64,000 nt of DNA, taken from Patescibacteria group bacterium. Lineage in GTDB: Bacteria > Patescibacteriota > Microgenomatia > UBA12405. Below, one piece after another: positions 1,389-48,283 of this stretch. The notes under the pieces are model-generated. The model did no database searches and was not told the DNA's origin. It saw nothing but the letters and a program-made list of their open reading frames with translations. The stretch covers positions 10,227-74,226 of the forward strand of contig WARW01000003.1 in assembly GCA_013387215.1 (NCBI GenBank), in the 5' to 3' direction. A program made the translations under genes and the position numbers. How positions within the stretch are numbered: position 1 is the first letter of the stretch; every line of letters starts with the position of its first letter.

Positions 1389-1401
1389 AGTTTGATAAAA
1401 T

Positions 1402-2399: not shown

Positions 2400-2430
2400 G
2401 GGAAATATTAGGTAAATTGTATAATAGAGT

Positions 2431-4206
2431 ATGAATATTTTAAAGTGGAACCTGGACGACATATTATCTGTTGAAAAATTTGATGAATTTTTTTGGGAAA
2501 TTCAAAATGATATTGGTTATTATCCACAACTAATTAAAAAACTAGACCCTCGAATGGAAGAGGAATTGTTTAAAGAGATAATAGATTTTGATGAAAATTT
2601 GAGCGAGAAAATTTCCAGATTGAGTTATCTGCCTCACTTAATGGAAACTACCAACCAAAAAGACCAGAAGGCTCAAATTTTAAAATCAAAAGCAGACCAA
2701 ATAATTGTTAGCTATGAGGAAGTTTCAAGAAAATTATTTCACTGGCTTAAGGGAAAAAAGGTTAACGAATTAGAGATTTTGGACAATAAAAATGCAGAAA
2801 GACTATTTGAATCGATTCCTGATTTGGAATTTCAACTTAAACATAATCGTGAAGCATCAAAATACGCTTTAAACGAATCTGAAGAAAACATAATTAGCAA
2901 TAAAAATATTAGCGGAATATTTGCAGTCAAAGATTTACGAAGACAAATATCAACTGGTTTTAGATATAAATTAAAGATTAAAAATCAAAAAACAAGAATA
3001 ATTAAAACACAAGCCGAATTAACAAATTTAGCGCACAGCTCTAAACCAGAAGAAAGAAAAGCGGCCTACTTAAGCTTGTTTAAAGAGTATGAAAAAAATT
3101 TAGATAAATTTTTTATAATTTATCAAGCAGTGGTTAAAGATTGGAATTATGAAGCAAAACTTAGAGGTTATGAAAGCGCCATCAGCATTAGAAATTTTAA
3201 TAATCATATTTCTAATGAAGTAATTGAGATGTTATTAAAAACCTGCAGTGAAAATAAATATGTTTTTCAAAAATATTTTAGATATAAAGCAAAAGAAATG
3301 GGGGTTGAGAAATTAAATCGTTTTGATATTTATGCTCCATTTAAGGCTAGGACTTATAAACACATAGAATTTAATAAAGCAAAAGAGTTGGTTTTAGAAA
3401 CATTTAAAGAATTTTCACCCAGTTTTTACAATCAGGCCAAAAAAATATTTGACGATAAACATATTGATTCCCACCCGAATCCAGAAAAAAGAAGCGGTGC
3501 ATTTTGTGCAACAATCAGTCCTAAAATAACTCCTTACATAATGATGAATTTTACAGGTGAAAAAAATGATTTATATACATTAGCTCATGAACTAGGACAC
3601 GGTATTCACAGTTTATTGGCAAATAATCATTATTATTCAAGTCAGCAGGCTACCCTACCTCTGGCTGAAACCGCTTCCACTTTATCGGAATTAATTTTGT
3701 TTGAAAAAACTTATAAAAATGAACACGATTCTAAAGTTAAAAAAACAATGCTGATTGACCAGATAGCAAGTTCTTATGCAAGCATATTGAGACAAAATTA
3801 TTTTGTGCTATTTGAAATTGAAGCCCATAAATTGATTAATTCAGGGTGCAATTCCAGCCAATTGTCGGAATTGTGGCTAAATACATTAAAGGAGCAGTTT
3901 GGGGATAGTGTAGAGGTGGATAGGGTTTTTAAAAATGAATGGGCTTATATCCCCCATATCTTTGATACACCATTTTATTGCTACAGCTATAATTTTGGAG
4001 AACTATTAAGTTATGCTTTGTATAGTAGATATAAAAAGGAAGGTTTAAGTTTTGTTTCTAAAATTGAAACGATATTGAAAAGCGGAGGTTCAGAGGATCC
4101 CGAAAAAATATTAATGAATGCTGGAATAAATATTAAGGATAAAAACTTTTGGCAGAGTAGTTTTGAGATAATAAATGAATGGCAATCTACATTAGAGAAA
4201 TTGTAA
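2431..4206 (+). CDS. pepF: oligoendopeptidase F (M3B metallopeptidase)
   Basis: HEXXH zinc motif 'AHELGHGIHS' and overall M3B PepF-like architecture, 591 aa. Confidence 0.85.
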   Translation: MNILKWNLDDILSVEKFDEFFWEIQNDIGYYPQLIKKLDPRMEEELFKEIIDFDENLSEKISRLSYLPHLMETTNQKDQKAQILKSKADQIIVSYEEVSRKLFHWLKGKKVNELEILDNKNAERLFESIPDLEFQLKHNREASKYALNESEENIISNKNISGIFAVKDLRRQISTGFRYKLKIKNQKTRIIKTQAELTNLAHSSKPEERKAAYLSLFKEYEKNLDKFFIIYQAVVKDWNYEAKLRGYESAISIRNFNNHISNEVIEMLLKTCSENKYVFQKYFRYKAKEMGVEKLNRFDIYAPFKARTYKHIEFNKAKELVLETFKEFSPSFYNQAKKIFDDKHIDSHPNPEKRSGAFCATISPKITPYIMMNFTGEKNDLYTLAHELGHGIHSLLANNHYYSSQQATLPLAETASTLSELILFEKTYKNEHDSKVKKTMLIDQIASSYASILRQNYFVLFEIEAHKLINSGCNSSQLSELWLNTLKEQFGDSVEVDRVFKNEWAYIPHIFDTPFYCYSYNFGELLSYALYSRYKKEGLSFVSKIETILKSGGSEDPEKILMNAGINIKDKNFWQSSFEIINEWQSTLEKL

Positions 4207-14448: not shown

Positions 14449-14997
14449 CTATTCCCGACAACAATCAAGAATCTTACCAATAACACCACTAACCTTACCC
14501 ATAAAATCTGTTTTATCGGCTTTTAAAGGTTTGTCTGATTTTGATAAAACTGGAGTATCGTTTTTGGTTTCTGATTTAAAGTCGTCAGATTTAAGCATGC
14601 CAAGATTTAGGCCCCAAAAAAGATTGTAGAGGTTATATGATTTTTTGAAAAATTCTTCCGAAGCTTTAATATCGCCCTTGGTTTGAGCTTTGGTACCAAC
14701 CTCCATAAGTCTCATGGAAGCAGCTAAAAGATGTTTACTAATACACCAGACTTCACCCTCATAATCTTTAATAATCATTTTCAAAAGCCCTTTGCGCATA
14801 TCGCGAACTTCATTAAGAAGATCATAATATTTTGTTTTGCCTGTTTTTCCGCCAGAGAAGAAAAGATGTTCTTCAATGGAAATAAGGTTCATGATGGCAA
14901 TAGATAGGTCTTCATCGGAAGACAAATCCAAAGTTTCACCTTTTTCCATTTTTTTAACTTTGTTTAAAAATTGATTAATATCTTCATTATTGGTCAT
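14449..14997 (-). CDS. hypothetical cytoplasmic protein
   Basis: 182-aa ORF convergent with the GT39 gene; no recognisable motif. Confidence 0.4.
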   Translation of the reverse strand: MTNNEDINQFLNKVKKMEKGETLDLSSDEDLSIAIMNLISIEEHLFFSGGKTGKTKYYDLLNEVRDMRKGLLKMIIKDYEGEVWCISKHLLAASMRLMEVGTKAQTKGDIKASEEFFKKSYNLYNLFWGLNLGMLKSDDFKSETKNDTPVLSKSDKPLKADKTDFMGKVSGVIGKILDCCRE

Positions 14998-15489: not shown

Positions 15490-18400
15490 TTATTTTTGAT
15501 TGAACTTGTAATAATTGTCAGCAAACTGACGAGGCACAAAATGCATCATATCGAGGCTGGTTAAGTTCTTTTTGGGAAGTCCGGTAATAATAATATTACT
15601 GCCAAAAAAATTGTTTATAGTGTCAAACTTTTTTTGAAAAAGCTTTTCTTTTATCATCATTCGAGCCTCATCGTAGCCAACATAAGTGGATAAATATTTA
15701 GTGCCAGCTACTTCATAATTTGTTTTAAGCGGATCGATAATTGATAATAATTGCTGCGGAATATTGGTTTGGTCATACAAATATATTAGTTTCAAATCGC
15801 CAAGAGCAGTTTCGGTAACTAATATATCACTTTTAGCGGTTAGATTGGCAAAAGATTTTTGATTAAAGATGTGATATTCATCGATCAAAGTTCCAGTTGG
15901 GGCAAGAATACCAACAATTTTAATTTTTGGCAGTCCAAAAAAGTTGGGTATTTCAGAACCAACACCTTTAATTAGGCCTTCTTCAATCATCATACTGGCC
16001 TCTTTAGATCCTAAAATAACATTATTTTCTCCTGATAAATCAAAGTTGCCTGCAGATAATTTTAAAGAGGATGGCAGATTGTCGACTCCTAAAATTAATT
16101 TAGGATTATTTTTGACAAAACCAATTTTTGAAGGATTATTTTTTAAAAGCTCATTTATTTCGGTTTTTATGGATGGCCGAGATTGGATATAGGCAACTAG
16201 ACCAGAATTGGATTGGGCATCAGCTCCCATTTTTGAAGAAAAGCTGGCAAATTCAATAAAAATAAGTAAAAAGAATGAAATCATCACAAAAGGAGCCAAT
16301 TTTGATATCCAATTAAACTTCCCTGGTTTGAAAAATTTTAAGGTTAAAGAGTTAGCCACCACTGAAACCGAAGATAAAGCCATGGCCAGACCTGCAAGTT
16401 CAGGTTTAAGAATTAAACCAATCCCCATCAAAGCACGAGCAGCGATGGGAATTCCCAGAATATTATAAAAGAGAGCAAAGAACATATTTTGACGAATTTT
16501 ACCTACGGTTTGGCGAGAAAGATCTATGGCTGTCAGAACTCCATTTAAATCATTACTGATAATGACAATACTACCTGATTCCATGGCGATATCAGCACCA
16601 CTACCCATAGCAATACCAAGATCAGATTGAGTTAAAGCAGGGGCATCGTTGATACCATCGCCAACCATAGCCACTTTAAAACCAGAATCTTGAAGTTTTT
16701 TGACTTCCTCCGCTTTGTTTTGAGGTAAAACTTCAGCTAATACATTGGTAATACCAAGCTGTTTGGCAATTGCGTCAGCAGTACGGTGATTATCACCAGT
16801 GATCATATATACAGCAATGCCCATTTTTTTAAGTTTGGAAACAACAGCAACTGAAGTTTCTTTAAGTTGATCGGCTACAGCAATTAATCCTAAAACTTTT
16901 TCTTTATTGGCGATAAGCATGGCAGTTTTACCATCATTCTCAAGCCTCTCCATATCATAAGAAGAAGTTAAGGGAATTTGATTCGCTTCCAATAGTTTAC
17001 GATTACCAACATAATAGGTTTGACCATTGACTACTGCTTTAACACCAGACCCAGGGATGGCCTGAAAATCTTCAATCGCATAGTTGATTGCCCCACAAGA
17101 TTGGCTATAACGAACAATCGATTCAGCCAAAGGATGTTCAGATTTTTGTTCGATTGAGTATAGAATTGAAAGAATTGTCTGATCACCTGGAAGATAGTTA
17201 ATAAAATCAGTTACTTCAGGTTTACCTTTAGTGAGAGTGCCAGTTTTATCAAAGACAATAGCTTCCAAATTTTGGGCCATTTCCAGCGGTTCGCCACCTT
17301 TAATTAAAACTCCATATTCAGCACCTTTACCAGTTCCAACCATAATAGAGGTAGGAGTGGCCAAACCAAGAGCACAAGGACATGCAATAACGATAACTGC
17401 CACAAAAGCTAATAAGGCGAAAGTTAAAGAAGACCCAAGCAAAAAGTACCAAATTACAAAAGTAAGGACGGCGATACTAATTACAGCTGGTACAAAAATT
17501 GAGGAAATCTTATCGGCAAAACCTTGAATTGGAGCTTTTGAACCTTGAGCATCTTCAATTAATTTGACGATTTGAGACAAAGCAGTGTCGGCACCAATTT
17601 TAGTGGTTTTAAACTCAAAAGAACCAGTCTTATTGATTGAAGCGGTATAAACTTTTGATCCAATTTGTTTTTCAACTGGTAATGATTCGCCAGTTAGAAT
17701 AGATTCATCAACAGCCGAGTAACCAGAAACTACTTCCCCATCCACAGGAATTCTTTCGCCAGGGCGAACAACAACAGTGTCGCCTACCATTACCTGTTCA
17801 ACAGGAATATCCACTGGTTGGCCATTTTTTAGAATACGAGCAGTTTTTGGGGCCAACCCCATTAATTTTTCAATAGCCTCAGAGGTCTTTCCTTTAGCTT
17901 TAGCTTCGAGCCATTTACCTAATGATACAAAAGTGATTAAGAAGGCGGCGACCTCAAAATAAAGATTGGGGATTTTGGAACCATTTAAGCCAATAAATGA
18001 ACCAGTTTCACTAAAATAATTAAAAAATTCAAATATGCTGTAAAAATAGGCTGTACTTGTGCCTATAGCAACTAAAGAATCCATGGAAAAAGTACGCATT
18101 TTTAAGGCTGACCAAAACCCAGCAAAAAAATTAGAACCAACGTAAAAAAGAACCGGAGTGGCTAATAATAAAGAGATCAATCCGGCGTATGGCATGACGA
18201 TGCTTTTAAATGGAACAGTATTGGTAAAATCGTAGACCATGAATAGAATCATGGGGATGCTTAGGATTAAACCGGTGAAGAATTTTGAAAACCAATATTT
18301 TATTTCCTGTTTTCTTTTTTCGTGCTGATTTTCTGTTTTTTCGTTAGGAAGCGAGGCTTTATAACCAGCTGCTTCAATGCTTTTAATCAAATCATCGATT

Positions 18401-18582
18401 TTGGCTGAACTAGGACTGTATACAACTCTGGCTTTTTCAGTGGCAAAATTAACATTAACCTCATTAACACCATTAACTTTTTTTAAAGACCGCTCGATAA
18501 GACCAGCGCAGCTGCTACAATGCATGCCAGTAATATCCAAATTTACGGCAATATTTTTTGTAGATGGGTTTTGATTTTCCAT
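15490..18582 (-). CDS. copA: copper-translocating P1B-type ATPase with ~285-aa C-terminal extension
   Basis: N-terminal HMA '[12 protein letters not shown]'; '[10 protein letters not shown]'; 'DKTGTLT'; 'GDGINDAP'; 1030 aa versus ~740 for the core, with an extra TM and a soluble tail. Confidence 0.9.
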
Positions 18583-18584
18583 AT

Positions 18585-18803
18585 TTATAGAAGCTGGGCT
18601 GTATAGCCAGAATTTTTTATAATTTTTATTAAATCTTCTGAATTAAGTTTGTCAGAATCAAATTCAACAGTAACTAGTTTTGTTTCTAAATTAGCATCAA
18701 CAGAAATAACACCATTAGTATCTTCTAAGTCCATTTGAATTAATTTTGGACAGGAAGGACAATGCATGTCGGAAACTTTAAATGTATTTTTTTGATTAGT
18801 CAT
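18585..18803 (-). CDS. copZ: copper chaperone (HMA domain)
   Basis: 72 aa, '[11 protein letters not shown]' MxCxxC motif. Confidence 0.8.
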
Positions 18804-18811
18804 GTTGGTTT

Positions 18812-19222
18812 TTAATTAATAACTTCAAAAGTACCCGTGTACATGCCCATGGTGCAACTGAAACGATAGGTTCCAGGTGCAACTGGAGTAAATTCTTTTG
18901 TAACTTGAGAGTTAGGGATAAGATCAATTCGGTCTGAGAAAAGCCCGTGAGAAACAATACTTCCAGCGCAGCCAGCATTGCCAGATGAAGTAATTTGCCA
19001 AACCACTGGTATGTTGGCTTTAATTTTAAAATTGTTTGGAGAATAACCAGCAGCCGAAGCAGTCATCTTAACAATTTGTTTACCATCTACAACTTGAACT
19101 AAGTCAGGGCCAGAAGCTGCATTGGAAACAGAGGGGTGTTTTTGGCTAAATATGAAAAAACCAAAAACAACGATTAAAACTATCGAACCTAAAACATAAA
19201 ATAGATTAGAAATATTTTTCAT
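18812..19222 (-). CDS. membrane-anchored cupredoxin-like domain protein
   Basis: N-terminal TM; C-terminal 'GCAGSIVSHGLF...YRFSCTMGMYTGTFEV' paralogous to the C-terminal domain of the neighbouring fusion protein; alternative TTG start at 19249. Confidence 0.55.
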   Translation of the reverse strand: MKNISNLFYVLGSIVLIVVFGFFIFSQKHPSVSNAASGPDLVQVVDGKQIVKMTASAAGYSPNNFKIKANIPVVWQITSSGNAGCAGSIVSHGLFSDRIDLIPNSQVTKEFTPVAPGTYRFSCTMGMYTGTFEVIN

Positions 19223-19230
19223 AGTTTTTA

Positions 19231-20694
19231 TTAATGATGACAACCACAACCTTTTGCACCAGATTCAATAATAGTTGGGGCTGCTCCAACAGAGTTGATA
19301 TTGCCTGATTTATCAAGCACTTCAAAAGTGCCCGTAACCATGCCCATCCAACAACTAAACCGATAAATTCCAGGAGTGTTGACAGTAAATTCTTTAACAC
19401 TGGTGGTTCCTGGAACTAAATCAATTTGACCGGAAAATAGTTGGCGGGAGATGATGGCATTAGTGCAACCACTAGTGCCCGTATCCTCTATTTCCCATTT
19501 AACAGGTATTCCAGCGCGAACTTTAAGTTTATTTGGAGCATATCCAGCAGATGAAGCTTTAATATGGATGATTTGCTTACCATCAATAATTGGAGGTAAG
19601 TCAGTGGCAATATTTTGAGATATGGTTTTAGGGGAAGTTAGAGATTCCAGATTAGAAACGCCTAAAACTGCCAATTGGGCATTTATATTAAAAAAGGCGA
19701 AGAATAAAACCAGAATTCCGGCAATTATAGAAAACTGCTGAGAAAATTTTGGATTAGAAAAAAGTTTAATACTGGTTAAGCCAATTGTGAGCAGGCCTGG
19801 TAGGGTGCCAATAGCAAATAAGCCCATGATTAAGGCACCTTGTATTGGATTACCAGAAGCTAATGCCAGTGCTTGGACTGTAATAGTAAAACCGCAAGGC
19901 AAGAAAAAGGTTAAAGCTCCCATAATTACCGGAGCAAATTTGCCAGTAAAATTAGACTCGTCTGAAAATCGGCGGGTTAAAGATTTGGGTAATTGAAGAC
20001 GAAATTTTTGCAGAGCTTTTATGCCAAGCATTTGTAAACCCAGAAGAATCATTAAGACAGATACAGCGATCACTAGGCTGGCTGAAAAAAGCGGCGTCAA
20101 TCTGAAGAAATTACCAATTTGGCCCAGAATGGCGCCAAAAGCAAGATAAGATAAAACCCGACCAGTATTAAACAAAAAGTGCGGTTGTAGTTTTTTGACG
20201 GTGGAATCGGAATTTGAATAAAGATTGTTCCATTGTTGAGACAAAGATAAAATAATACCGCCAACAAGAGCCGCGCAACTGGAAAAACCAGCGAGCAGAC
20301 CGAAAAGGAAAAACACAGGTAGAGAACTTTGTGCATTAACTGATATTAAAGAGGAAAATCCAGATTTACCTAATAAAATAAAAACTAAAATAAATAAAAG
20401 GCTAAAAAATAATGAAGAAAAAACATTGAGACGTTTTTTTTCTATTGGGCAAGAAACAGCTTTGGTGTTTTGTTTAGAAAATGGCTTGAGTGAAAACCGA
20501 TAGTTATCTTTTAAAAAGATATCGTTTAAATCTTTTAAAGATATTTTTATATTTCTTTTTGTTTCAAGAGATAAAGTTGACTTAGCTAAGGAAACCTCGG
20601 CTTTAACAACTCCTTGCTGCTTTAAAAGTTTCTTTTCGATTAGAATTTCACAAGAAGGACAATGCAGGCCAGAAATATAAAATAATTGTTTCAT
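19231..20694 (-). CDS. HMA domain - DsbD/CcdA-like permease - cupredoxin fusion with C-terminal GCGCHH tail
   Basis: 'ISGLHCPSCEILIEKKL' (HMA); ~6-8 TM central region; 'SGCTNAIISRQLF...YRFSCWMGMVTGTFEV' (cupredoxin-like); terminal 'KGCGCHH'; start at internal ATG (MKQLFYISG). Confidence 0.6.
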   Translation of the reverse strand: MKQLFYISGLHCPSCEILIEKKLLKQQGVVKAEVSLAKSTLSLETKRNIKISLKDLNDIFLKDNYRFSLKPFSKQNTKAVSCPIEKKRLNVFSSLFFSLLFILVFILLGKSGFSSLISVNAQSSLPVFFLFGLLAGFSSCAALVGGIILSLSQQWNNLYSNSDSTVKKLQPHFLFNTGRVLSYLAFGAILGQIGNFFRLTPLFSASLVIAVSVLMILLGLQMLGIKALQKFRLQLPKSLTRRFSDESNFTGKFAPVIMGALTFFLPCGFTITVQALALASGNPIQGALIMGLFAIGTLPGLLTIGLTSIKLFSNPKFSQQFSIIAGILVLFFAFFNINAQLAVLGVSNLESLTSPKTISQNIATDLPPIIDGKQIIHIKASSAGYAPNKLKVRAGIPVKWEIEDTGTSGCTNAIISRQLFSGQIDLVPGTTSVKEFTVNTPGIYRFSCWMGMVTGTFEVLDKSGNINSVGAAPTIIESGAKGCGCHH

Positions 20695-20710
20695 ACTACG
20701 TAGTGTAGTA
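20694..20710. promoter_or_regulatory. dyad motif TACTAC-N5-GTAGTA abutting start codon of HMA-permease gene
   Basis: TACTACGTAGTGTAGTA, perfect 6-5-6 inverted repeat filling the 23-nt gap between M56 gene stop and next start. Confidence 0.4.
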
Positions 20711-20717
20711 GATGTTT

Positions 20718-21626
20718 TCATTCTTTGCAATGGTCTGATAAAGAGATGTTTTGGTGAGAGAATAAAACTTCGACACATTTGACCAAATGGTTGCATTGAT
20801 AGAAAATTGTAGATTTACCAATAAAGGTAGTAGTAAACAAAATGAGAACCAATAAAAATGAATTTAGGGTAAAGAAGTTTTTGAAATTAGGCTTCTTTTT
20901 ATCAACTAAAACCGAAACGCGTTCATGAAATTCAGAAAAATTATTGAGATAAAAATTATTTCTTGTGTCAGGTTCTTCTATTTTTAACAGAGCAGAAACC
21001 AATGGTGTTTTTGATTTCAATTGAGTTTGGGCATAATTATCACAATTTATTTCTACCAATGCAGAATAATTTTTGAATATCCAGACTTTCTTTGGGAAAG
21101 AAGGTAAAAAGTGGTTGATTAAATCAACAATAAAATCTTTTAAAGGGTCAAAATTAAATTGATGTTTTTGTTCATGAAAAATAATCGCTTCCAATTCTTT
21201 TGGATTAACGGTTTTAATTAATTTTTCCGATATATAGATTTGAGGATTTAAAAAACCTGAAGTAAAGGCAATGACTTCTTTAATTTTGATCAAGTTATAC
21301 TGATTTTGTCTTTTTGATTTAAGGTTGTTTAAAAATTTTTTAGTTAAAAATATTTTATTAAAAGAATAATCGAGAGATTTAAAGAAGCGAAGTAAAAGAA
21401 TAAATAATATTATTCCGGATAAAACATTTATATAAAATGTCGAAGAAATAATTAAGGGAATTAAATTTTGATGATTATTTTTTAGGGCATCTATTAAAAA
21501 TATCAACTGCATCGAAAATCCAGAGAATATCTTTAAAAAGGCGAGTGATAAAAAGGATATGTAAAGAATTCCTAAAGTTAGGATGAATAAAAAAGCTAGA
21601 TTTCTTTGAAAACTGATTTTAGTCAT
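20718..21626 (-). CDS. M56-family (BlaR1/MecR1-like) membrane zinc protease without penicillin-binding sensor domain
   Basis: 4 TM helices, 'IIFHEQKHQ' HEXXH; 302 aa; Cys/His-rich C-terminus 'CNHLVKCVEVLFSHQNISLSDHCKE'. Confidence 0.65.
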   Translation of the reverse strand: MTKISFQRNLAFLFILTLGILYISFLSLAFLKIFSGFSMQLIFLIDALKNNHQNLIPLIISSTFYINVLSGIILFILLLRFFKSLDYSFNKIFLTKKFLNNLKSKRQNQYNLIKIKEVIAFTSGFLNPQIYISEKLIKTVNPKELEAIIFHEQKHQFNFDPLKDFIVDLINHFLPSFPKKVWIFKNYSALVEINCDNYAQTQLKSKTPLVSALLKIEEPDTRNNFYLNNFSEFHERVSVLVDKKKPNFKNFFTLNSFLLVLILFTTTFIGKSTIFYQCNHLVKCVEVLFSHQNISLSDHCKE

Positions 21627-21984
21627 TATTTTTCAAATATTCTTTTAATAACTCAATATCATTTTTATTGTTTTTAATAGTATCGACAAATTGGGAAATA
21701 GCCAACTTACCATATGAACCGACCAAATTGCCGTAAATTCCAGACAGATTAGATTCGATAAACTGATCTTTATTTAAAATGGGAGTATAAAAATAAACTT
21801 TACCTTCTAGTTTTCTTTTGACTATTTTTTTATCTGACATTCGCTTGAGAACAGTCATAATTGTGGTGTAGGCCTGATCCCCTTTTAGACTCACTAGAAC
21901 TTCGGCAGGTTTTAAAGGACGGTTGGACTGCCAAAGGATATCCATTATCTTCTGTTCTAATTCACCAAGCATTTGGGTTTTCAT
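21619..21984 (-). CDS. BlaI/MecI/CopY-family transcriptional repressor
   Basis: 121 aa winged-helix 'LGELEQKIMDILW...PAEV...TIMTVLKRMSDKKIV...KVYFYTP'; no C-terminal Cys metal motif; 8-nt overlap with M56 gene. Confidence 0.8.
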   Translation of the reverse strand: MKTQMLGELEQKIMDILWQSNRPLKPAEVLVSLKGDQAYTTIMTVLKRMSDKKIVKRKLEGKVYFYTPILNKDQFIESNLSGIYGNLVGSYGKLAISQFVDTIKNNKNDIELLKEYLKNND

Positions 21985-22031: not shown

Positions 22032-23420
22032 TTATTGCTTACATTGACCATTGTAGACTGGTGAACAACCAAGTTGGCTGTCGGTTCGCTGGCCAGAAGT
22101 GTCGTCAATATGTTTACGAAGCACTTGTTCTAGCTCATACCCTTTTTGAGGAATGGTGGAGATTAAATTGTTTTGCTCTTTAGGATCGTCATTTAGGTTA
22201 TAAAGCTCTTTGTTGCCGTTTTCTAAAGTTAAAATAAATTTCCAGCCATCTGGAGTCTGATAGGACCTTTTAAATGTATAAAGTCGATAATCAGTTTCAC
22301 TAAATACACTGTGGGCGACAGATTTACCATCAAAAACCGGAGTAAGATCAGCACCTTTTGTCTGTTCAGGAACAGGGTTTTTTATTCCCAATAAATCAAG
22401 CGCAGTTGGAACTATATCGAGAGTGCTTACTAGTTCATTAATTCTTTGGCCTTTGGTTTGGCCTGGTTTGTGAATAGCAAACAAAACATCAACTAGTTCA
22501 CCATAAAGAGTGTGGCCATGATCAAAACGATTATGTTCGTAGAATTCAGTGCCATGATCACTCATAACGATAATAATTGTATTATCCAAAAGTTTCATGT
22601 TGTTGATCTGATCCATAAAGTTTTTGAATTCAGCATCGGTACGATTAATCTTTTCATCATAAATAGCCCGCCAAAAAGCCACATCTTCGGGTGATAGATT
22701 TAAACTTTTACCAGCTAAACCGTCTTCACGAAGTTGACCTTGTTCGGTTGGACTGCCAGTATATTTGCCGTTATATGGCTTTGAAACATAGCGATAATCA
22801 AAACCACCGGCTGGTGCATGCTGCCCGTGAACATCATAGCCATGAAGGAAAAGGAAAAACTGCTTGTTTTTATTCTGCTTTAACCAGTCAACTGCTCTTG
22901 GTATGCTGCCATCGAAACCACCGAAGGTGCCAGTGGGTTCATAATAAGTATCAAAACCTTGACTAAAACCAAACTGCGGCCCAACTCCAGCATCGCCAGT
23001 AAAACCGCCAGTAACAAAACCTTGTTTTTTAAGAATTTCAGCAAGGGTCATGGCATTCGGAGAAAGTTTTTTTAAATTAGAAATAGTTCCCTTTTGGGCT
23101 TTCATATCGTAATCACTAAATTTGTTGACAACTTTATGTTCGGATGGATACATAGAAGTAAAGACAGACATGTGGGTTGGCACTGTCCAAGATGACGGAC
23201 TGACAGTATTGGTAAATAAAGTTGACTTATCAATAAAAGAATCTAAATTGGGAGTCGTGTTCAAAGAATAGCCATATTCATGCAAATGCTTGGCCTGCAA
23301 GCCATCGATCGAAACAAGAATAAGATTATATTTTTTATGAAATAGTTTTGGAGAAATCTTTATTGCAGCAACGGTTAGTAAGCTTAGAACAATGACACCA
23401 ATAAGAAATTTAATTTTCAT
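22032..23420 (-). CDS. membrane-anchored sulfatase-fold (alkaline phosphatase superfamily) protein, divergent paralog
   Basis: Signal/TM; 'TTPNLDSF', 'SSWTVPTHMSVFTSMYP', 'MSDHGTEFYEHNRFDHG' sulfatase-family motifs; lacks KKEGYF tail. Confidence 0.75.
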   Translation of the reverse strand: MKIKFLIGVIVLSLLTVAAIKISPKLFHKKYNLILVSIDGLQAKHLHEYGYSLNTTPNLDSFIDKSTLFTNTVSPSSWTVPTHMSVFTSMYPSEHKVVNKFSDYDMKAQKGTISNLKKLSPNAMTLAEILKKQGFVTGGFTGDAGVGPQFGFSQGFDTYYEPTGTFGGFDGSIPRAVDWLKQNKNKQFFLFLHGYDVHGQHAPAGGFDYRYVSKPYNGKYTGSPTEQGQLREDGLAGKSLNLSPEDVAFWRAIYDEKINRTDAEFKNFMDQINNMKLLDNTIIIVMSDHGTEFYEHNRFDHGHTLYGELVDVLFAIHKPGQTKGQRINELVSTLDIVPTALDLLGIKNPVPEQTKGADLTPVFDGKSVAHSVFSETDYRLYTFKRSYQTPDGWKFILTLENGNKELYNLNDDPKEQNNLISTIPQKGYELEQVLRKHIDDTSGQRTDSQLGCSPVYNGQCKQ

Positions 23421-23493
23421 ATCAAGTAAATCAAATTATATAAATGATATAAGTGTTATATTAAATTTATCTTTTAAAAGCAATAGACCGTAA

Positions 23494-25023
23494 ATGCGAT
23501 TGGGTAAAAAAATATTTATATTTGGTTTGCTGGGATTGATGATAATTGGGAGCGGTTTTTTGATTATTAAAAAAGTATCAAAAAAAACCTGCGATAAATG
23601 CAACATAATGCTTATCGATGTTGATATTTTGAGAGCAGATGAACTTCCCTGCTATGGATATCCCCGAAACACAATGCCAAACATTTGTGAATTTGCCAAA
23701 AAATCAGTAAGTTTTAAAGATAATTATTCGACTTCATATTGGACACTACCAAGTATTTTTTCAGTAATTACTTCACTATATCCAACTTTTCATCAAATGC
23801 AGGTTAATTATATGTTTGCACTGTCGTCTAGAATTCCGACTTTAGCAGAAACTTTACATAAGCAAGGATATAAGACTGTTTATGTGGGACAAAAAGACGA
23901 TTTAATGTCTAGTTATAATGGCGGTTTCCGCGGTTATGATTTAGTAACTCAAGAACCAATTGAAAAAGTAATTGATGAACTTTCAAAAAGTTCTCAACCA
24001 TGGTTTATACATAGGTATATCAGTGAATTGCATATGCCCTATTTATTGCCAGATAATTTAAAACCTGTGGAAGATTTGCCGGTTCCAAAAAATTTACCAA
24101 CTACTTATTACACTTTCGATTTATTTTTTAATAAATATTTAAAAGAACATTACAAAGAAATATTTAAACAGAAAGCAATCGATGAATATAGAGCAATTAT
24201 TTTAGGACCAGATAAGGCAGATGATATTAGTGTGACCAATCTTTTTGATAAATTGAGAGCTGACGATAAAACCATAAATGAATATTTATTAGATGCCTGG
24301 AGACCGAGATTAGATTTTTATTTAAAATCGTTTGACGGAAAAAATCCCCAAGATGTGGCTTATTTAAGAATGATGTATGACACTAAACTAAAATATCTTG
24401 ATGAAAAACTAAAACCTCTTTTACAAAGACTAGACTCGAGTTCATTGTCAAAAAACACTATTACAGTGATTATGTCGGATCATGGTGAAGCATTTGGCGA
24501 GCACGGAACGTTTTCACATGAGGATAATCATTTCACTGAACTATTTTACACTCCTTTAATAATCAGGGCTCCTCAATTTGAAGCAAAACAAGTTGAACAA
24601 ACCACAAATATAGTGGATATATTTCCGACTATTTTAGATTTAACAGGTGAGAAAAAAATTGATATGCATCAAGGGCAATCATTAGTACCTTATATGAATG
24701 GCCAAACTAAAAACGATACTACATTCAGCTTGAGCCAATCAATAGAAGGAACGCTTTTACAAAATAAGAATTGGCTGTACTTTTTACCAAACAGCGCTAA
24801 AGATATGAATGAATCAGAACTCTATAATAAAACCATCGACCCCCTGGAAAAAGTGAATGTGACTGGACAGAATCAAGATTTAGTTAAAACACTTTTTAAA
24901 AAAGCTGATTTATTCCGCTCATACGGAGGGATTGATTATGAAAAAGAAGAAATACCGTTGCCAAACCGGATGAAGTTGGACCCAGATAAAATAGAACGCC
25001 TTAAAAAAGAAGGATATTTTTAA
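23494..25023 (+). CDS. sulfatase-fold paralog 1 (Thr at sulfatase Cys position)
   Basis: N-terminal TM; 'DELPCYGYPRNTMPNICEF', 'STSYWTLPSIFS', 'MSDHGEAFGEHGTFSHE'; C-terminal 'KIERLKKEGYF'. Confidence 0.75.
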   Translation: MRLGKKIFIFGLLGLMIIGSGFLIIKKVSKKTCDKCNIMLIDVDILRADELPCYGYPRNTMPNICEFAKKSVSFKDNYSTSYWTLPSIFSVITSLYPTFHQMQVNYMFALSSRIPTLAETLHKQGYKTVYVGQKDDLMSSYNGGFRGYDLVTQEPIEKVIDELSKSSQPWFIHRYISELHMPYLLPDNLKPVEDLPVPKNLPTTYYTFDLFFNKYLKEHYKEIFKQKAIDEYRAIILGPDKADDISVTNLFDKLRADDKTINEYLLDAWRPRLDFYLKSFDGKNPQDVAYLRMMYDTKLKYLDEKLKPLLQRLDSSSLSKNTITVIMSDHGEAFGEHGTFSHEDNHFTELFYTPLIIRAPQFEAKQVEQTTNIVDIFPTILDLTGEKKIDMHQGQSLVPYMNGQTKNDTTFSLSQSIEGTLLQNKNWLYFLPNSAKDMNESELYNKTIDPLEKVNVTGQNQDLVKTLFKKADLFRSYGGIDYEKEEIPLPNRMKLDPDKIERLKKEGYF

Positions 25024-25068
25024 TAGGTGGTATATTAAACTGATAATTAAAAGTAATAGGCTGTTTTA

Positions 25069-26613
25069 ATGCTCAAAAGAAAATATCAAAAAATTATAAT
25101 CGGAGCGGGATTTATTTTGTTGATTATATTTGGGCTAATAGGACTTTTTAAACGAACAAACAAATTGCCATTTAAAGCCTGTACCAACTGCAACATTATA
25201 TTAATTGATATTGATATTTTAAGAGCTGATGAATTGCCTTGCTACGGATATTCCCGAAATACCACCCCAAACATTTGTAATTTTGCGAAAAAGGGTATGA
25301 TTTTTAATGACAACTATTCTCCATCCTATTGGACTATGCCTAGTATGTTTTCCACAATAACGTCTCTTTATCCAACTTTCCACCGAATCCAAATGAATTA
25401 CACTGAAGCTTTGTCGCCTAAAATTCCAACCCTTGCAGAAACTTTACACAAACAAGGCTACCGAACAATCTATATTGGCCCGGAAGACGACATGTTAAAA
25501 CACAATAATGGCGGCTTACGCGGTTATGATTTAGTGACTCAAGAACCGATTGAAAAAGTGGTAAGCGAATTGTCGAAAAGTTCTCAACCATGGTTTGTGC
25601 ATTACTATAATAGTGATTTGCATGCCCCATATTTATTTAATGAAAAACCTCAATTGATTGATAATCTTCCCGCCCCTAAAAATTTTCCAATTACTTATTT
25701 AGATTTCAGTATTCTTCTAAATAAATATTTAAAAGAACATTACAAAGAAATATTCAAACAGAAAGCTATCGATGAATATAGAGCAATTATTTTAGGACCA
25801 GATAAAGCAGATGATATTAGTGTAACTACTCTTTTTAACAATATTAGAGGCGATAAGAAAATAATGAATGATTATTTATTTGATGCCTGGGTGCCAATAT
25901 TAAACACTTATCTTGGTTCTTTTGATAAAAATAATGCCGATAATGTGGCATATTTACGCATGATATATGATACTAAACTTAAGATAATAGACGATAAGTT
26001 GGGAGCGCTTTTTCAAGAGTTGGATTCAGAAGCACTATCTAAAAACACCATAACAGCAATTTCGTCAGACCACGGAGAAGCGTTTGGAGAACATGGAACT
26101 TTTTCACATGAGGTTAACCATTTCACTGAACTATATTACACACCTTTAATAATCAAGGCTCCACAATTTTCAGGAAAAATAATTAATGAAACCAGCAGCA
26201 ACATTGATATTTTCCCGACTTTTTTAGACTTAACCGGCAGCGAAAAAATTAATAATCAGCAAGGCAAATCACTAGTTTCTTATATGAATAATGAAAATAA
26301 AAGTTTAGAGGGCTTTAGTGTCAGTGAATGTTCGGAAGGAATATTGCTGCAAAATAAAAAATGGTTGTATTTTTTATCAAATGAGGTTTCAGAATTTAAT
26401 AAATCGGAACTTTACGACAGGAAAAATGATCCATTAGAAAAAAATAATGTGGTTGGAAAGAATCCAGAATTAGCTAGATCACTTTACCGACAGGCTGATT
26501 TGTTCCGATCCTATGGCAAAATTGAATATAAAAAAGAAGAGATACCAATTAGTGAGCAAATTAAGTTGGATCCAGAAAAGATCGAACGTCTTAAAAAAGA
26601 AGGCTATTTTTAA
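25069..26613 (+). CDS. sulfatase-fold paralog 2
   Basis: ~70% aa identity to paralog 1; ~108-nt near-identical tract; tail 'KIERLKKEGYF'. Confidence 0.75.
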   Translation: MLKRKYQKIIIGAGFILLIIFGLIGLFKRTNKLPFKACTNCNIILIDIDILRADELPCYGYSRNTTPNICNFAKKGMIFNDNYSPSYWTMPSMFSTITSLYPTFHRIQMNYTEALSPKIPTLAETLHKQGYRTIYIGPEDDMLKHNNGGLRGYDLVTQEPIEKVVSELSKSSQPWFVHYYNSDLHAPYLFNEKPQLIDNLPAPKNFPITYLDFSILLNKYLKEHYKEIFKQKAIDEYRAIILGPDKADDISVTTLFNNIRGDKKIMNDYLFDAWVPILNTYLGSFDKNNADNVAYLRMIYDTKLKIIDDKLGALFQELDSEALSKNTITAISSDHGEAFGEHGTFSHEVNHFTELYYTPLIIKAPQFSGKIINETSSNIDIFPTFLDLTGSEKINNQQGKSLVSYMNNENKSLEGFSVSECSEGILLQNKKWLYFLSNEVSEFNKSELYDRKNDPLEKNNVVGKNPELARSLYRQADLFRSYGKIEYKKEEIPISEQIKLDPEKIERLKKEGYF

Positions 26614-26654
26614 TTAGGTTAATATATAAATAATATATTGAATAAATAAATTAC

Positions 26655-28196
26655 ATGAAGATTCTTTTTTTTAGAGAAAAAAAATACCGCAAGATTATTG
26701 TGTTAGTTGGTATAGCATTAATAATTGGGTTAGTACTTGCATGGAAAAGATTGCCTGAAAAAAAGTGTGAACACTGCAATATTGTAATGGTAGATATTGA
26801 TGTCTTAAGAGCTGATGAGTTGCCTTGTTATGGATATTCCCGAAACACCACTCCCAATATTTGCCAGTTTGCCAAAAAGGCGACTATTTTTAAAGATAAT
26901 TATTCGACTTCATATTGGACTTTACCTAGTATGTTTTCAACAATTACCTCTATGCTACCCACCTTTCATAAGGTGAGAACTGAATTTATCAACAAACTGT
27001 CCCCTGATACAAAAACACTAGCCGAAGTTTTACATAGCCAGGGATATCGAACAGTATATATTGGCGACGGCCAGAATCCTGCTTTATTAACCAAAGATAA
27101 CGGAGGCTTGAGAGGTTACGATATTGTGACAAAAGAACCGATCGAAAAAGTAATTGCAGATCTTTCAAAAAGCTCACAGCCATGGTTTATCCACTATTAT
27201 TTAGTTGATTTACATATGCCTTATTTATTACCAGAAAATGTGAAACCAATGGAAGATCTGCCAGCTCCAAAAAATTTGCCAATAAACCAAACCGATTTTG
27301 ACCGCATGTTAAATACCTATTTAAAAAAGCACTATAAACAAATATTTAATGAAAAAGCGATTGGAAAATACGGCTCGGTTATTTTAGCTCCAGATAAAGC
27401 AGATGATACCAGTGTGACTAAACTTTTCAACGATTTAAGATGGACTAGTAAAAGCATGACTGAATATTTTATTGACAGCTGGAAGCCTATTTTTAATTCA
27501 TATATGGATTCATTTGATAAGAATAATCCCAATGATGTGGCATATATTAGAATGATGTACGATACAAAATTAAAACTGGCTGACGAGCAACTACAATCTC
27601 TTTTTATAAAATTAGAGACAAAACCATTTTCTGAAAATACGATCTCGATAATTATGTCAGATCATGGAGAAGCGTTTGGAGAACATGGAACTTTTTCCCA
27701 TGACAATAATAGTTATACGGAACTTTATCACACGCCGTTAATAATTCGGGCACCTGGACTGCCTGCTAAAATTGTGGACCAAACTTCAAGCAACCTAGAT
27801 ATTTTTCCAACAGTTTTAGACTTAAATGAAATAAAAAAATTAGACAGTTTTCAGGGAAAATCATTAGTGGACAGTGTCAATAAAAAAACAGAAACTAAAT
27901 CATTTAGTCTAAGCGAATATTCTGATGGTGTAATTTTACAAAACCATGACTGGCTGTATTTCTTACCATTTTGGGTTGATAAGTTTGAAAACTCAATGTT
28001 GTTTGATAGAAATAAAGATCCTAAGGAAAAAAATAATGCAGCAAAACAGAATTTAGAGTTAACTCACTTTCTTTATAAACAAGCTGATTTATTGAGATCT
28101 TATAATGGAATTATTTATAAGCCAGAGGAAATTCCAAGCGATATTAAATTAAATCCTGAAAAAATAGAGCGTCTTAAAAAAGAAGGCTATTTTTAA
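26655..28196 (+). CDS. sulfatase-fold paralog 3
   Basis: Same motifs; tail 'KIERLKKEGYF'. Confidence 0.75.
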   Translation: MKILFFREKKYRKIIVLVGIALIIGLVLAWKRLPEKKCEHCNIVMVDIDVLRADELPCYGYSRNTTPNICQFAKKATIFKDNYSTSYWTLPSMFSTITSMLPTFHKVRTEFINKLSPDTKTLAEVLHSQGYRTVYIGDGQNPALLTKDNGGLRGYDIVTKEPIEKVIADLSKSSQPWFIHYYLVDLHMPYLLPENVKPMEDLPAPKNLPINQTDFDRMLNTYLKKHYKQIFNEKAIGKYGSVILAPDKADDTSVTKLFNDLRWTSKSMTEYFIDSWKPIFNSYMDSFDKNNPNDVAYIRMMYDTKLKLADEQLQSLFIKLETKPFSENTISIIMSDHGEAFGEHGTFSHDNNSYTELYHTPLIIRAPGLPAKIVDQTSSNLDIFPTVLDLNEIKKLDSFQGKSLVDSVNKKTETKSFSLSEYSDGVILQNHDWLYFLPFWVDKFENSMLFDRNKDPKEKNNAAKQNLELTHFLYKQADLLRSYNGIIYKPEEIPSDIKLNPEKIERLKKEGYF

Positions 28197-28209
28197 ATAA
28201 ATTTGAAAG

Positions 28210-29727
28210 ATGGATAAAAAAATAAGAAATGTTTTATTGGTTTTGTTAATTTTTGTCGTGGGAACGGCAGTATTTGCATTAATAAAGACTAGGACAAAGA
28301 AAACCTGTGATCATTGCAATATTGTGATAATGGATATTGATATTTTAAGAGCTGATGAATTGCCCTGTTACGGATATTCCAGAAATACGACCCCAAATAT
28401 TTGCCAGTTTGCCAAAAAGGCAACTGTTTTTAAGGATAATTATTCAACTTCTGTTTTAACACTACCAGATATGTTTTCGATAATTACATCTCTTTATCCA
28501 ACTTTTCACCATGTGAACACAGCAACAATCGATAAACTTTCAGCAAACATCCCTACTTTGACTGAGATATTGAAAAAAGAAGGCTACAGGACAGTTTTTA
28601 TTGGAGATAGTGAATATTCTGGAACAATAAATAATCAAAACAATGGGCTAAGAGGCTTTGATATGGTGACACAAGAACCGATTGAAAAGGTAATGGAAGA
28701 ATTATCAAAAAGTTCTCAACCATGGTTTATATATTATTACTCAGGCGACTTACATATGCCTTATTTACTGCCGAAAAACACAAAACCGATGGAAAATATG
28801 CCGGCTCCAAAAAACTTACCGATAAACCAAACTGATTTTGATAAACGGTTAAATATTTATTTAAAAAATCACTACAAAGAGGTTTTTAATAAAAAAGCCA
28901 TTAAAGAATATTCTTCAATAATATTATCGCCAGATAAACCAGCAACTGAACTGTTTTATTCCTTAAAAAGTGACAATGAAAAGATGAAAGAATACTTAAT
29001 CGATGTGTGGAAACCTGAGTTTAACGTGTATATGGAATCATTTGATCAAAATAATTCTTCAGAGGTAAGTTATGTCCGAATGATTTATGATACAAAGTTA
29101 AATTTAGTTGATAATAAACTTGAAAAGGTGCTTAAAAAACTGGACACAAAAGAATCAATAAAAAATACGATTACTTTAATTTCATCAAACCACGGAGAAA
29201 GCTTTGGAGAACATGGAAATTTTTCCCATAATTTTAGTCCTCACTCAGAACTTTATTACACTCCATTAATAATTAAAGCGCCACAACTTAAGGCAAAACA
29301 AATCCAAAATACTTCAAGTAATATGGATATCCTACCCACAATTTTGGATTTAACTGGAATAAAAAAGTTAGACAGTTTTCAAGGAAACTCATTGATCGCT
29401 AGTATTAATCAAAAAGAAAACTTAGAAAATTTTGCCATGAGTGAATATTGGGGAAATATAATTTTACAAAATAAAAAATGGCTATATTTTTTACCAGCAG
29501 AAGCTAAATACATTGAGCAATCAATGCTTTTTAATAAAGAGAATGATAAAGATGAAAATACCAATGTGTCGATGCAAAATACAGAACTAGTAAAGATGCT
29601 TTACAAAAGGGCGGATTTGCTACGTTCTTATAGTGGAATTAATTATAAAATAGAAACTATTCCTACTAATGAAATAAAAATAGATCCTGAAAAAATTAAG
29701 AGGATTCAAAAAGAAGGATATTTTTAA
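28210..29727 (+). CDS. sulfatase-fold paralog 4
   Basis: Same motifs ('SSNHGESFGEHGNFSH'); lacks KADDISVT segment; tail 'KIKRIQKEGYF'. Confidence 0.7.
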   Translation: MDKKIRNVLLVLLIFVVGTAVFALIKTRTKKTCDHCNIVIMDIDILRADELPCYGYSRNTTPNICQFAKKATVFKDNYSTSVLTLPDMFSIITSLYPTFHHVNTATIDKLSANIPTLTEILKKEGYRTVFIGDSEYSGTINNQNNGLRGFDMVTQEPIEKVMEELSKSSQPWFIYYYSGDLHMPYLLPKNTKPMENMPAPKNLPINQTDFDKRLNIYLKNHYKEVFNKKAIKEYSSIILSPDKPATELFYSLKSDNEKMKEYLIDVWKPEFNVYMESFDQNNSSEVSYVRMIYDTKLNLVDNKLEKVLKKLDTKESIKNTITLISSNHGESFGEHGNFSHNFSPHSELYYTPLIIKAPQLKAKQIQNTSSNMDILPTILDLTGIKKLDSFQGNSLIASINQKENLENFAMSEYWGNIILQNKKWLYFLPAEAKYIEQSMLFNKENDKDENTNVSMQNTELVKMLYKRADLLRSYSGINYKIETIPTNEIKIDPEKIKRIQKEGYF

Positions 29728-31292
29728 TGAAAGGCTTTTTAAGTAGAAAAAAACTTTTGTTGCTAGCATTATTGATTTTATTGTCGATAGTAATTGGTTT
29801 TGGATCGTGGACTTTTTATAAAAAAACAGAAAATAAGTCCGAAAAAAAGTGCGAGAATTGCAACATAATGCTTATTGATATTGATATTTTAAGAGGTGAT
29901 GAATTATCCTGTTTGGGATATTCCCGAAATACCACCCCAAACATTTGTGAATTTGCCAAAAATGGAGCTGTTTTTAAGGATAATTATTCGACTTCATATT
30001 GGACTCTTCCAAGTATATTTTCAACCATGACTTCTTTGTATCCGACTTTTCATGGGATGCAAAATGCAGGCAAGGATATTCTCTCTCCAAACATTACAAC
30101 TTTGGCTGAGGTGTTACATAAAAAAGGATATATGACGGTTATGGTAAACGGAAATAAAGATACAATGCAAATGCTGTTTGGCGATAATGAGGGTTTGAGA
30201 GGCTTTGAAATGGTTACAGCTGATCCGGTTGAAAAAGTTATAGATGACTTATCAAAAGACAATAGACCTTGGTTTATTTATTACTATAACTCAGAGCTGC
30301 ACTTTCCATATTTATTGCCAGAAAACACAAAACCGATGGAAGATTTGCCAGCTCCAAAAAATTTACCAATAAACCAAACTGATTTTGATACTTTACTAAA
30401 TAAATATTTAAAGACTCATTATACAGAAATATTTAAGCCAAAGATAATTGATAAGTACGGTTCGATTATTTTAGGGTCAAATAAAGAAGATGATATGGGT
30501 ATGGTGAAAATGTTTAATACTTTAAAAGCGGATCCTTCAAAAGTAAGCGAATATTTTATTAATGACTGGAATGCAAATTACCAAACTTACATGGAGTCGT
30601 TTGATCAAAATAATCCATCTGACGTTAAATATGTGCGAATGCTTTACGATACAAAATTAAAATTACTTGATAATAAAATGGGAAGTGTTTTACAAAAATT
30701 AAATTCGAAACAGCTTTCAGAAAATACAATCACAGTTATTACTTCAGACCATGGAGAAAATTTTGGAGAACATGGTTTTTTTACCCATATTGCCGATTTT
30801 CATTCCGAAGTGTTTTATATTCCATTAATTATTAAATCACCCAACATTTTACCGACAACAATCGAGCAAACAACAAGTAATATTGACATATTCCCTACTC
30901 TTTTAGATTTAACTGGCATCAATAGCCCGGGCGGACTACAAGGGATTTCTTTAGTTCCGTATATTAATAATCAGCACACAGAAAAACAATCATTTGCTAT
31001 GAGTGAATATTGGGGAAATGTGATTTTAGAGAATCATGATTGGCTGTATTTTTTACCTAAAGATGAGCAAGGTGTAGTCAAACCCACGTTCTATGACAGA
31101 ATTAAAGATCCGGCAGAAAAAGAAAATGTCATAGATAAATATCCTGAGATGGTAAATTCCCTTTATAAACAAGCCAGCCTGCTTCGCTCTTATAATGTTT
31201 TCTATGAAAATAAACCAATAGTAAAACCTGATGTAATCAAAAACATTGATAAAGTAAAATTAGATCGATTAAGGAAAGAAGGTTATTTTTAA
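29727..31292 (+). CDS. sulfatase-fold paralog 5
   Basis: TAATG start/stop overlap with paralog 4; tail 'LDRLRKEGYF'. Confidence 0.75.
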   Translation: MKGFLSRKKLLLLALLILLSIVIGFGSWTFYKKTENKSEKKCENCNIMLIDIDILRGDELSCLGYSRNTTPNICEFAKNGAVFKDNYSTSYWTLPSIFSTMTSLYPTFHGMQNAGKDILSPNITTLAEVLHKKGYMTVMVNGNKDTMQMLFGDNEGLRGFEMVTADPVEKVIDDLSKDNRPWFIYYYNSELHFPYLLPENTKPMEDLPAPKNLPINQTDFDTLLNKYLKTHYTEIFKPKIIDKYGSIILGSNKEDDMGMVKMFNTLKADPSKVSEYFINDWNANYQTYMESFDQNNPSDVKYVRMLYDTKLKLLDNKMGSVLQKLNSKQLSENTITVITSDHGENFGEHGFFTHIADFHSEVFYIPLIIKSPNILPTTIEQTTSNIDIFPTLLDLTGINSPGGLQGISLVPYINNQHTEKQSFAMSEYWGNVILENHDWLYFLPKDEQGVVKPTFYDRIKDPAEKENVIDKYPEMVNSLYKQASLLRSYNVFYENKPIVKPDVIKNIDKVKLDRLRKEGYF

Positions 31293-31298
31293 AAACAG

Positions 31299-32831: not shown

Positions 32832-32838
32832 AAAATAA

Positions 32839-45524: not shown

Positions 45525-45525
45525 A

Positions 45526-48213: not shown

Positions 48214-48249
48214 GTTTTAGGTCTGAATGATTGATATAATTTGTATAAA

Positions 48250-48283
48250 CAGTGCCTTGTTAATATCTAACACTGTTTTTTAC
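48250..48283 (+). terminator. possible terminator/attenuator after VirB4 gene
   Basis: aacagtg-N16-cactgtt followed by TTTTT; large loop, weak. Confidence 0.25.

Follow-up and report, generated by a model that had tools for sequence, protein, structure and literature searches.

The stretch of DNA analysed here (the window: 64,000 nucleotides (nt) of contig WARW01000003.1, assembly GCA_013387215.1, from a Patescibacteria group bacterium) contains on its minus strand an uninterrupted open reading frame (ORF) of 1030 amino acids (aa) for a copper pump with an additional C-terminal domain (Table 1). Judged from its sequence, the encoded pump is a complete Cu(I)-exporting P1B-1 ATPase of the CopA type; behind the ATPase core the chain continues through a ninth transmembrane (TM) helix, TM9, into a folded domain which is predicted to lie outside the cell. 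A first-pass annotation, made from the sequence letters, had drawn attention to positions 15490-16350, which correspond to aa 745-1030 and the stop codon, and both protein strings quoted there (aa 756-781 and aa 853-898) are contained in this ORF.

Concerning the ATPase core, a motif scan located TGE (aa 297), CPC (aa 401), DKTGT (aa 445), GDGIND (aa 641), YN (aa 706) and MALSS (aa 734), which together with CSSC (aa 22) make up the complete motif set of a Cu(I)/Ag(I) pump. The combination of CPC in helix M4, YN in M5 and MxxSS in M6 is the signature that defines Cu(I) pumps in the Arguello classification. Pfam recognises E1-E2_ATPase (aa 243-421, expectation value (E) 7.4e-60) and Hydrolase (aa 440-652, E 1.9e-40), and the NCBIfam models TIGR01511 (633 bits, cutoff 397) and TIGR01525 (658 bits, cutoff 346) are clearly exceeded; the pump is not an equivalog of E. 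coli CopA, as its score with the corresponding model NF007952 is 628 against a cutoff of 1316. The full-length AlphaFold (AF2) model of the protein (predicted local distance difference test (pLDDT) 81.7, predicted TM-score (pTM) 0.71) contains the eight core helices MA (aa 86-119), MB (126-148), M1 (167-193), M2 (209-241), M3 (351-381), M4 (386-422), M5 (680-714) and M6 (727-750). The whole-pump models stop at aa 748-754 (TIGR01525 covers aa 167-748, NF007952 aa 9-754), in agreement with the end of the core at about aa 740 given by the first-pass annotation. Pumps of the CopA type are defined by eight TM helices and a cytoplasmic C-terminus; here a ninth helix and 245 further aa follow.

Table 1. 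Features of the copper pump gene and of the genes surrounding it, in window coordinates
Feature	Position	Strand	Residues (aa)	Characteristics and basis
Penicillinase_R (BlaI/CopY-type) repressor	21619..21984	-		head of gene string; Pfam
BlaR1-like M48/M56 peptidase	20718..21626	-		Pfam
HMA-DsbD_2-Cupredoxin_1 fusion protein	19231..20796	-		CWMGM and C-terminal GCGCHH; Pfam
Membrane-anchored cupredoxin-like protein	18812..19249	-		Cupredoxin_1 E 2.8e-10; CTMGM (CxMxM); single TM at aa 16-34
CopZ-like HMA chaperone gene	18585..18803	-		immediately upstream of pump; PF00403 E 2.4e-16; also in related loci
Whole pump gene: Cu(I) P1B-1 ATPase, ninth TM helix and predicted extracytoplasmic domain	15490..18582	-	1-1030	1030 aa; stop codon 15490..15492; ORF list
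N-terminal HMA metal-binding domain	18358..18537	-	16-75	CSSC at aa 22; PF00403 E 4.4e-19
Eight-helix P1B core with A, P and N domains	16333..18327	-	86-750	motifs and AlphaFold helices
Short Lys-rich loop from M6 to TM9, predicted cytoplasmic	16312..16332	-	751-757	FKPGKFN; extra Lys at aa 749
Ninth transmembrane helix (TM9)	16225..16311	-	758-786	hydropathy and both AF2 models
Low-confidence linker	16192..16224	-	787-797	pLDDT <50; starts with conserved SSxM
Predicted extracytoplasmic domain, MacB/LolC-like fold	15493..16191	-	798-1030	Cys-free; AF2 and fold matches
Repeat 1	15862..16023	-	854-907	beta-alpha-beta-beta; hhalign
Repeat 2	15532..15702	-	961-1017	hhalign and conservation
Small membrane protein of about five helices	15015..15539	-		CPVC near N-terminus; overlaps pump gene 3' end by 50 nt
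182-aa soluble protein	14449..14997	-		without family match

Nowhere in the C-terminal half of the protein is hydropathy higher than in the TM9 segment (Kyte-Doolittle peak 2.21), which is helical in the full-length as well as in the domain-only AF2 model (pLDDT about 77-89); the SS.M motif with which the following linker begins is conserved among the fused forms of the protein. Among 29 fused relatives, the 12 residues preceding TM9 contain on average 3.76 Lys+Arg and 0.03 Asp+Glu, and the 15 residues following it 1.28 Lys+Arg and 1.38 Asp+Glu. Homologues of the domain that are encoded by separate genes (see below) possess an N-terminal signal-anchor with more positive charge before the anchor than after it. 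Furthermore, cysteine is absent from 99 of 101 family domains, and the structural relatives found by fold search are all extracytoplasmic domains. Because of this charge bias, the cysteine-free domains and the extracytoplasmic nature of the structural relatives, the C-terminal domain is taken to face outward, such that it would be displayed on the outer face of the membrane. Hydropathy, AF2 helices and charge bias all fit a ninth membrane helix that comes after the eight core helices, and the extra TM segment and the outside position of the domain, both proposed by the first-pass annotation, are borne out by them, the latter also by the signal-anchor of the separate homologues.

AF2 predicts the C-terminal region confidently as an alpha/beta domain of the MacB/LolC class (domain-only model with pLDDT 88 and pTM 0.76, most of the domain with pLDDT >90). 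In a Foldseek search, the first 27 matches all belonged to this class of extracytoplasmic domains, although the statistics are weak (E 6e-3 to 0.1, TM-score 0.25-0.34), and the predicted structure has the same three-dimensional fold as MacB_PCD. Concerning the sequence, Pfam and NCBIfam gave no match to the domain of the window at E<=1, and Pfam none at E<=10. Among 67 family members scanned singly, however, Pfam matches were most often, and by a wide margin, to MacB_PCD (PF12704; 12 members, best E 7e-6), with scores of 14.5-24.8 bits that are below the gathering score of 27 bits. No FtsX match was obtained with Pfam, either for the window protein or for the 67 members. When PDB sequences were searched by hmmsearch with two whole-domain profiles and a repeat-unit profile, MacB and LolC were not retrieved at E<=10 and chance matches alone appeared (E>=0.15); a profile that included the M5-M6 columns re-found CopA alone, through those columns. 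Alignment by hhalign of the family and repeat profiles to E. coli LolC and MacB gave probabilities below 0.1%, which is a weak test as the targets were single sequences. From the fold class and the recurrent sub-threshold sequence signal, distant homology to MacB_PCD is probable; by curated criteria the domain is not a member of this family.

The extracytoplasmic domains of type VII ATP-binding cassette (ABC) systems (MacB, LolC/LolE, YknZ, YbbP, HrtB, YtrF; PF12704) thus have their fold class in common with the domain described here, but there are fundamental differences between them. A single helix precedes the domain in the pump and the protein ends after it, i.e., there is neither a four-helix FtsX permease, between TM1 and TM2 of which the domain would be inserted, nor a second stalk helix, and in place of an ABC ATPase a P-type ATPase is fused or adjacent in all 89 informative loci (see below). 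In addition, the sequence remains below the Pfam threshold, the two halves of the domain are still visibly duplicated (E 6e-21), and EAxMM and TxTxxDxxH are conserved in them. Of the MacB/FtsX-type resemblance noticed in the first-pass annotation, the fold class is therefore retained, whereas the Pfam threshold is not reached and the domain is not inserted in an FtsX permease.

The domain is a tandem duplication of a beta-alpha-beta-beta unit of about 55 residues, which had been missed by the first-pass annotation. The two repeats align to each other by hhalign with a probability of 99.35% (E 6.3e-21, 59 columns), a hidden Markov model (HMM) of the repeat matches both units (80.9 and 83.0 bits), and both align to positions of about 120-198 of the 207 positions of the MacB_PCD profile; MacB itself is described as having a Porter/Sabre architecture with two beta-alpha-beta elements flanking an insert (PMC5985334). 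A second copy of the domain was not found elsewhere in the window with the repeat HMM. The consensus of the unit is G-x-x-E-A-x-M-M-x-x-E-x-L-(4)-G-D-x-I-x-x-F-F-G-(4)-I-x-G-I-L-x-x-T-x-T-x-x-D-x-x-H, and the conserved residues are G858, E861, A862, M864, M865, G875, G883, G891, T896, D901 and H904 in repeat 1 and G969, E972, A973, M976, D987, G994, D1011 and H1014 in repeat 2. Among 101 family members, the first Gly is conserved in 97% in either repeat, the Glu in 92% (repeat 1) and 95% (repeat 2), the second Met in 94% in either repeat, the Thr in 96% and 89%, the Asp in 99% and 100%, and the His in 91% and 86%.

Two variants of the domain deviate in length. In a second Shapirobacteria variant (L031, 3715..6558), whose open frame comprises 948 codons, the domain is shortened and its repeat 2 has become degenerate (GFSQAQMGSVLKDFFG ... 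DMMYFV), from which it follows that the second repeat can decay. In a metagenome fragment from a high-GC relative (P0115, 638 aa), the domain is followed by a further region of about 260 aa without Pfam match, containing FLHEHP and VMHTHP, which may constitute a second outside appendage on the pump.

The family is small. The last 286 aa of the protein, compared with 5.8 billion proteins, gave 20 matches, nine of which are ATPase C-termini cut by contig ends and possessing loop, helix and domain, and a profile run against 1.84 billion cluster representatives retrieved only 203 clusters at E<=1e-3. A tally of 168 family proteins, 150 of them from the matches listed by the cluster-representative search, comprises about 59 anchored proteins of about 250-280 aa and about 30 visibly linked to an ATPase, the remainder being fragments. 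Database entries for the family are without informative name, 'hypothetical protein' at most.

A scan of one genome per species, seeded by an alignment of six sequences, found 30 loci in Shapirobacteria, other Patescibacteria, Gracilibacteria, SR1/Absconditabacteria, bins labelled Peribacteria, and three DPANN archaea. In every bacterial locus with sufficient contig (23 of 23), the domain lies in one open frame with an ATPase that contains CPC and DKTGT. In all three archaeal loci, by contrast with this fused form, it is a separate ORF of 268-278 aa, whose N-terminus is short and charged and is followed by a hydrophobic anchor; this ORF directly adjoins an ordinary HMA-P1B ATPase of 727-750 aa (with an overlap of 4 nt in L032). 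Over the DPANN archaea as a whole, the adjoining Cu-ATPase measures 727-800 aa. Metagenomes, scanned with the separate form as the seed, gave 80 loci. In 43 of them the domain is fused in frame with the ATPase, and in 20 it has a gene of its own that neighbours the ATPase gene on the same strand, mostly at less than 100 nt or overlapping; the other 17 are uninformative, as each has a flank shorter than 1 kb. In most of the separate metagenome loci the pump is situated upstream, in L040, L058 and L061 downstream. The fused bacterial frames measure 948-1345 codons from stop to stop, identities of the fused loci (23 from genomes, 43 from metagenomes) are 28-68%, and the domain of the window is nearest to Shapirobacteria loci (63-66%). 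No locus without a pump was found among the 89 informative ones. In the sampled loci, the family hence occurs only with Cu-ATPases, fused through TM9 in Patescibacteria and separate beside the pump in DPANN. That both the fused and the split form are obligately linked to the pump is strong evidence that the domain works with it. The separate archaeal gene is, like the internal duplication, new relative to the first-pass annotation, which had suggested looking for the same fusion in related genomes; in frame, this fusion recurs in the genomes of 23 species and at 43 loci from metagenomes.

In Gracilibacteria, SR1 and the bins labelled Peribacteria (L009-L012, L014-L018, L020 and others), an uninterrupted fused ORF results only from translation of UGA as Gly (table 25). 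Several public protein entries (P0016, P0025, P0028 and P0066 among them) have Trp where Gly is invariant in the repeats, which we read as UGA rendered as Trp by gene callers.

The first-pass annotation had also advised excluding a frameshift or an assembly join near 16350. The separate genes in archaea, and the fragmentation of the gene in some assemblies, could be cited for an artefact which fused two genes; however, the in-frame junction, with the conserved order M6, KPGK and TM9, is identical in 66 independent loci from varied samples and lineages, including those with code 25, and neither a stop codon nor a break in composition occurs at the junction according to the ORF list and the composition of the window. 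An artefactual fusion is thereby refuted for practical purposes, and the continuation of the frame into a helix and a soluble domain stands as it had been described. Two database matches of about 170 aa (P0010, P0019) were considered as possible free-standing half-domains and rejected as counter-examples, because at both loci the whole ATPase gene is in fragments, such that they are read as frameshifted assemblies. In L001 and L002 (contigs of 1.6 Mb and 24 kb), nearly all genes of the cop locus are broken up into short ORFs, a pattern compatible with indel errors of the assembly, and the protein entries derived from such loci mimic free-standing half-domains.

The pump gene belongs to a string of genes on the same strand, the order of which is, from upstream to downstream, repressor, M48/M56 peptidase, HMA-DsbD_2-Cupredoxin_1 protein, anchored cupredoxin, CopZ-like protein, pump, five-helix protein and 182-aa protein. 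The HMA-DsbD_2-Cupredoxin_1 protein possesses seven predicted TM helices, one of them before the six-helix DsbD_2 region, and this number would place the cupredoxin on the side opposite to the HMA domain. Its domain composition suggests a thiol-reducing membrane module that would maintain the copper site of an outside cupredoxin. In 46 of the 112 related loci, bacterial and archaeal, the DsbD_2 and cupredoxin parts are found again (in the archaeal L032 at 822..2612). The five-helix CPVC protein is without Pfam family, and homologues of it (51-55% identity) are found near the pump in L003, L005, L006 and L031; homologues of the 182-aa protein (49-65% identity) occur near the pump in L005, L006, L031 and L078.

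P1B pumps are given in the literature as proteins of eight TM helices with cytoplasmic terminal domains only (PMC7558416, PMC10654040), an overview of accessory subunits lists no such extracytoplasmic subunit for them (PMC10654040), and the sole P1B partner described in a further study is PacL, which faces the cytoplasm (PMC13460109). Our literature searches found no paper in which an extracytoplasmic domain or subunit is ascribed to a P1B ATPase, in line with the first-pass annotation, which knew of no described metal ATPase with such an appendage. What is new is a predicted outward-facing module on a standard copper pump, and with it a new domain family that is probably distantly related to MacB_PCD.

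Among known systems, PacL (DUF1490; Actinobacteria; partners of CtpC, CtpG and CtpV) is a small single-pass protein encoded in an operon with a P1B ATPase and invariably associated with it, and constitutes a precedent for dedicated membrane partners of heavy-metal pumps (PMC13460109). Its domain is cytoplasmic, largely disordered, composed of Glu/Ala repeats, and binds the cytoplasmic metal-binding domain of the pump, whereas the domain of the window is a folded alpha/beta domain predicted outside; DUF1490 was not found by Pfam in the window proteins or in 67 family members. The beta subunit of Na,K- and H,K-ATPase, KdpC and CDC50 each combine one TM helix (two in CDC50) with a sizeable outward domain on a pump (PMC10654040). 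The archaeal separate-gene form has exactly the layout of subunits of the Na,K-ATPase beta and KdpC type; the domain is functionally comparable to the beta subunit, KdpC and CDC50, but exhibits no relationship to them in fold or sequence. For CusF and CopC, as for the domain described here, the role proposed is that of accepting Cu(I) from CopA on the outside, with Met and His instead of Cys as ligands (PMC7558416); their folds are OB-like or Ig-like and they are soluble, whereas the present putative acceptor is tethered and of a different fold.

As the domain occurs only with Cu-ATPases, either fused or adjacent, we regard it as a dedicated accessory module of the pump, and the reading that we favour, by a narrow balance of probability, is that of an outward-facing module serving as a putative Cu(I) acceptor or dock. 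The C-terminus of the pump would cross the membrane once more by TM9 and display the folded domain outside, with the helix holding it over the pump. There, the domain might take over Cu(I) leaving the exit site, by means of the conserved Met, His, Asp and Glu residues of both repeats, in a way comparable to the transfer from CopA to the periplasmic His/Met protein CusF (PMC7558416); alternatively to such direct uptake, it might dock the co-encoded extracytoplasmic cupredoxin proteins. In either case, the exported copper would be handed on, instead of rebinding or re-entering. The separate form would physically associate with its pump, and the domain would putatively handle copper in this form as well as in the fused one. 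A more far-reaching version, which we put forward only tentatively, considers the domain an obligatory extracytoplasmic subunit of the P1B pumps of Patescibacteria and DPANN, MacB-derived and internally duplicated, which couples the pump to the handling of Cu(I) outside, e.g., by cupredoxins maintained by DsbD. If true, metal pumps would have in it their first outward-facing subunit, and a P-type instead of an ABC motor would for the first time be seen to serve a MacB-type domain.

Several observations weigh against a role in copper handling. In divergent members, the Met positions are replaced by Leu or Ile and the His positions by Tyr, Asn or Ile, exchanges which would be tolerable at buried hydrophobic positions too, and all four Met/His positions are kept in 80 of 101 members, with losses that are only loosely coupled. 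Neither the fold-search lists nor Pfam contained a known copper chaperone (CusF, CopC, PCuAC), and the full-length model, in which the linker has a pLDDT <50, does not fix where the domain sits over the pump. The main rival to the putative Cu(I) acceptor or dock is a purely structural or assembly subunit without any contact to copper, on which the stability, folding or localisation of the pump would depend; the conserved Met, His, Asp and Thr would then belong to the core or cap loops. The strict linkage to the pump is explained equally well by such a subunit, and the exchanges of Met to Leu and of His to Tyr fit it as well; moreover, PacL is needed for the accumulation of its P1B pumps (PMC13460109), and extracytoplasmic domains of the MacB type are not metal binders (PMC5985334). 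A near-invariant Asp (99-100%), together with Glu and Thr, in both repeats would, however, be unusual for a mere scaffold, and the neighbourhood is rich in candidate extracytoplasmic copper-handling proteins. We hold this explanation to be rather unlikely, if the strongest of the competing ones.

The fold class, being one used in mechanotransmission by type VII ABC systems, and the long helix on which the domain hangs could also indicate that movements between the E1 and E2 states are transmitted by TM9 to the outer domain, as in MacB, LolCDE and FtsEX, in order to perform mechanical work outside, e.g., the expulsion of copper through the wall or S-layer, or the activation of a partner. MacB, however, employs two stalk helices per monomer and is a dimer (PMC5985334), whereas here a single connecting helix is followed by a linker predicted to be flexible, and in archaea the domain is even situated on a separate polypeptide; mechanotransmission is thus considered improbable. 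Still far less probable is a cytoplasmic regulatory or metal-sensing domain, as in some eukaryotic P1B pumps, behind a hydrophobic segment that does not span the membrane. Such an arrangement would conform to the known pattern of cytoplasmic C-terminal metal-binding domains in P1B pumps (PMC10654040), but is contradicted by the length of the helix (29 residues) and its hydropathy, by the strong positive-inside bias before and the acidic bias after it, and by the signal-anchor of the separate homologues, the lack of Cys and the extracytoplasmic location of all structural relatives.

Beyond CopA and CusF of E. coli, little is understood of the fate of Cu(I) once it reaches the outer exit, and a family tied to the pump at the predicted exit side, which exists in fused and split forms, offers a ready system for the study of metal release and hand-off. 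Besides providing a new domain family to annotate, it would represent a MacB-type extracytoplasmic module reused by a different class of motor, and it marks a trait shared by two ultra-small, episymbiotic lineages, the candidate phyla radiation (CPR) and DPANN.

Concerning the remainder of the window, an Rfam scan detected no RNA family. Eight consecutive ORFs of 460-520 aa, the first on the minus and the others on the plus strand, are situated at 22032..34227; two of them match Pfam Sulfatase (E ~1e-36), a third is visibly paralogous, and the others were judged by size and position, the whole constituting an unusually large tandem array of paralogues for a small genome. At 45499..51430, a TraG/VirB4-like P-loop ATPase (904 aa) is followed by a protein of 1037 aa with a C-terminal NlpC/P60 domain, an arrangement resembling a portion of a type IV secretion or conjugation-like module.

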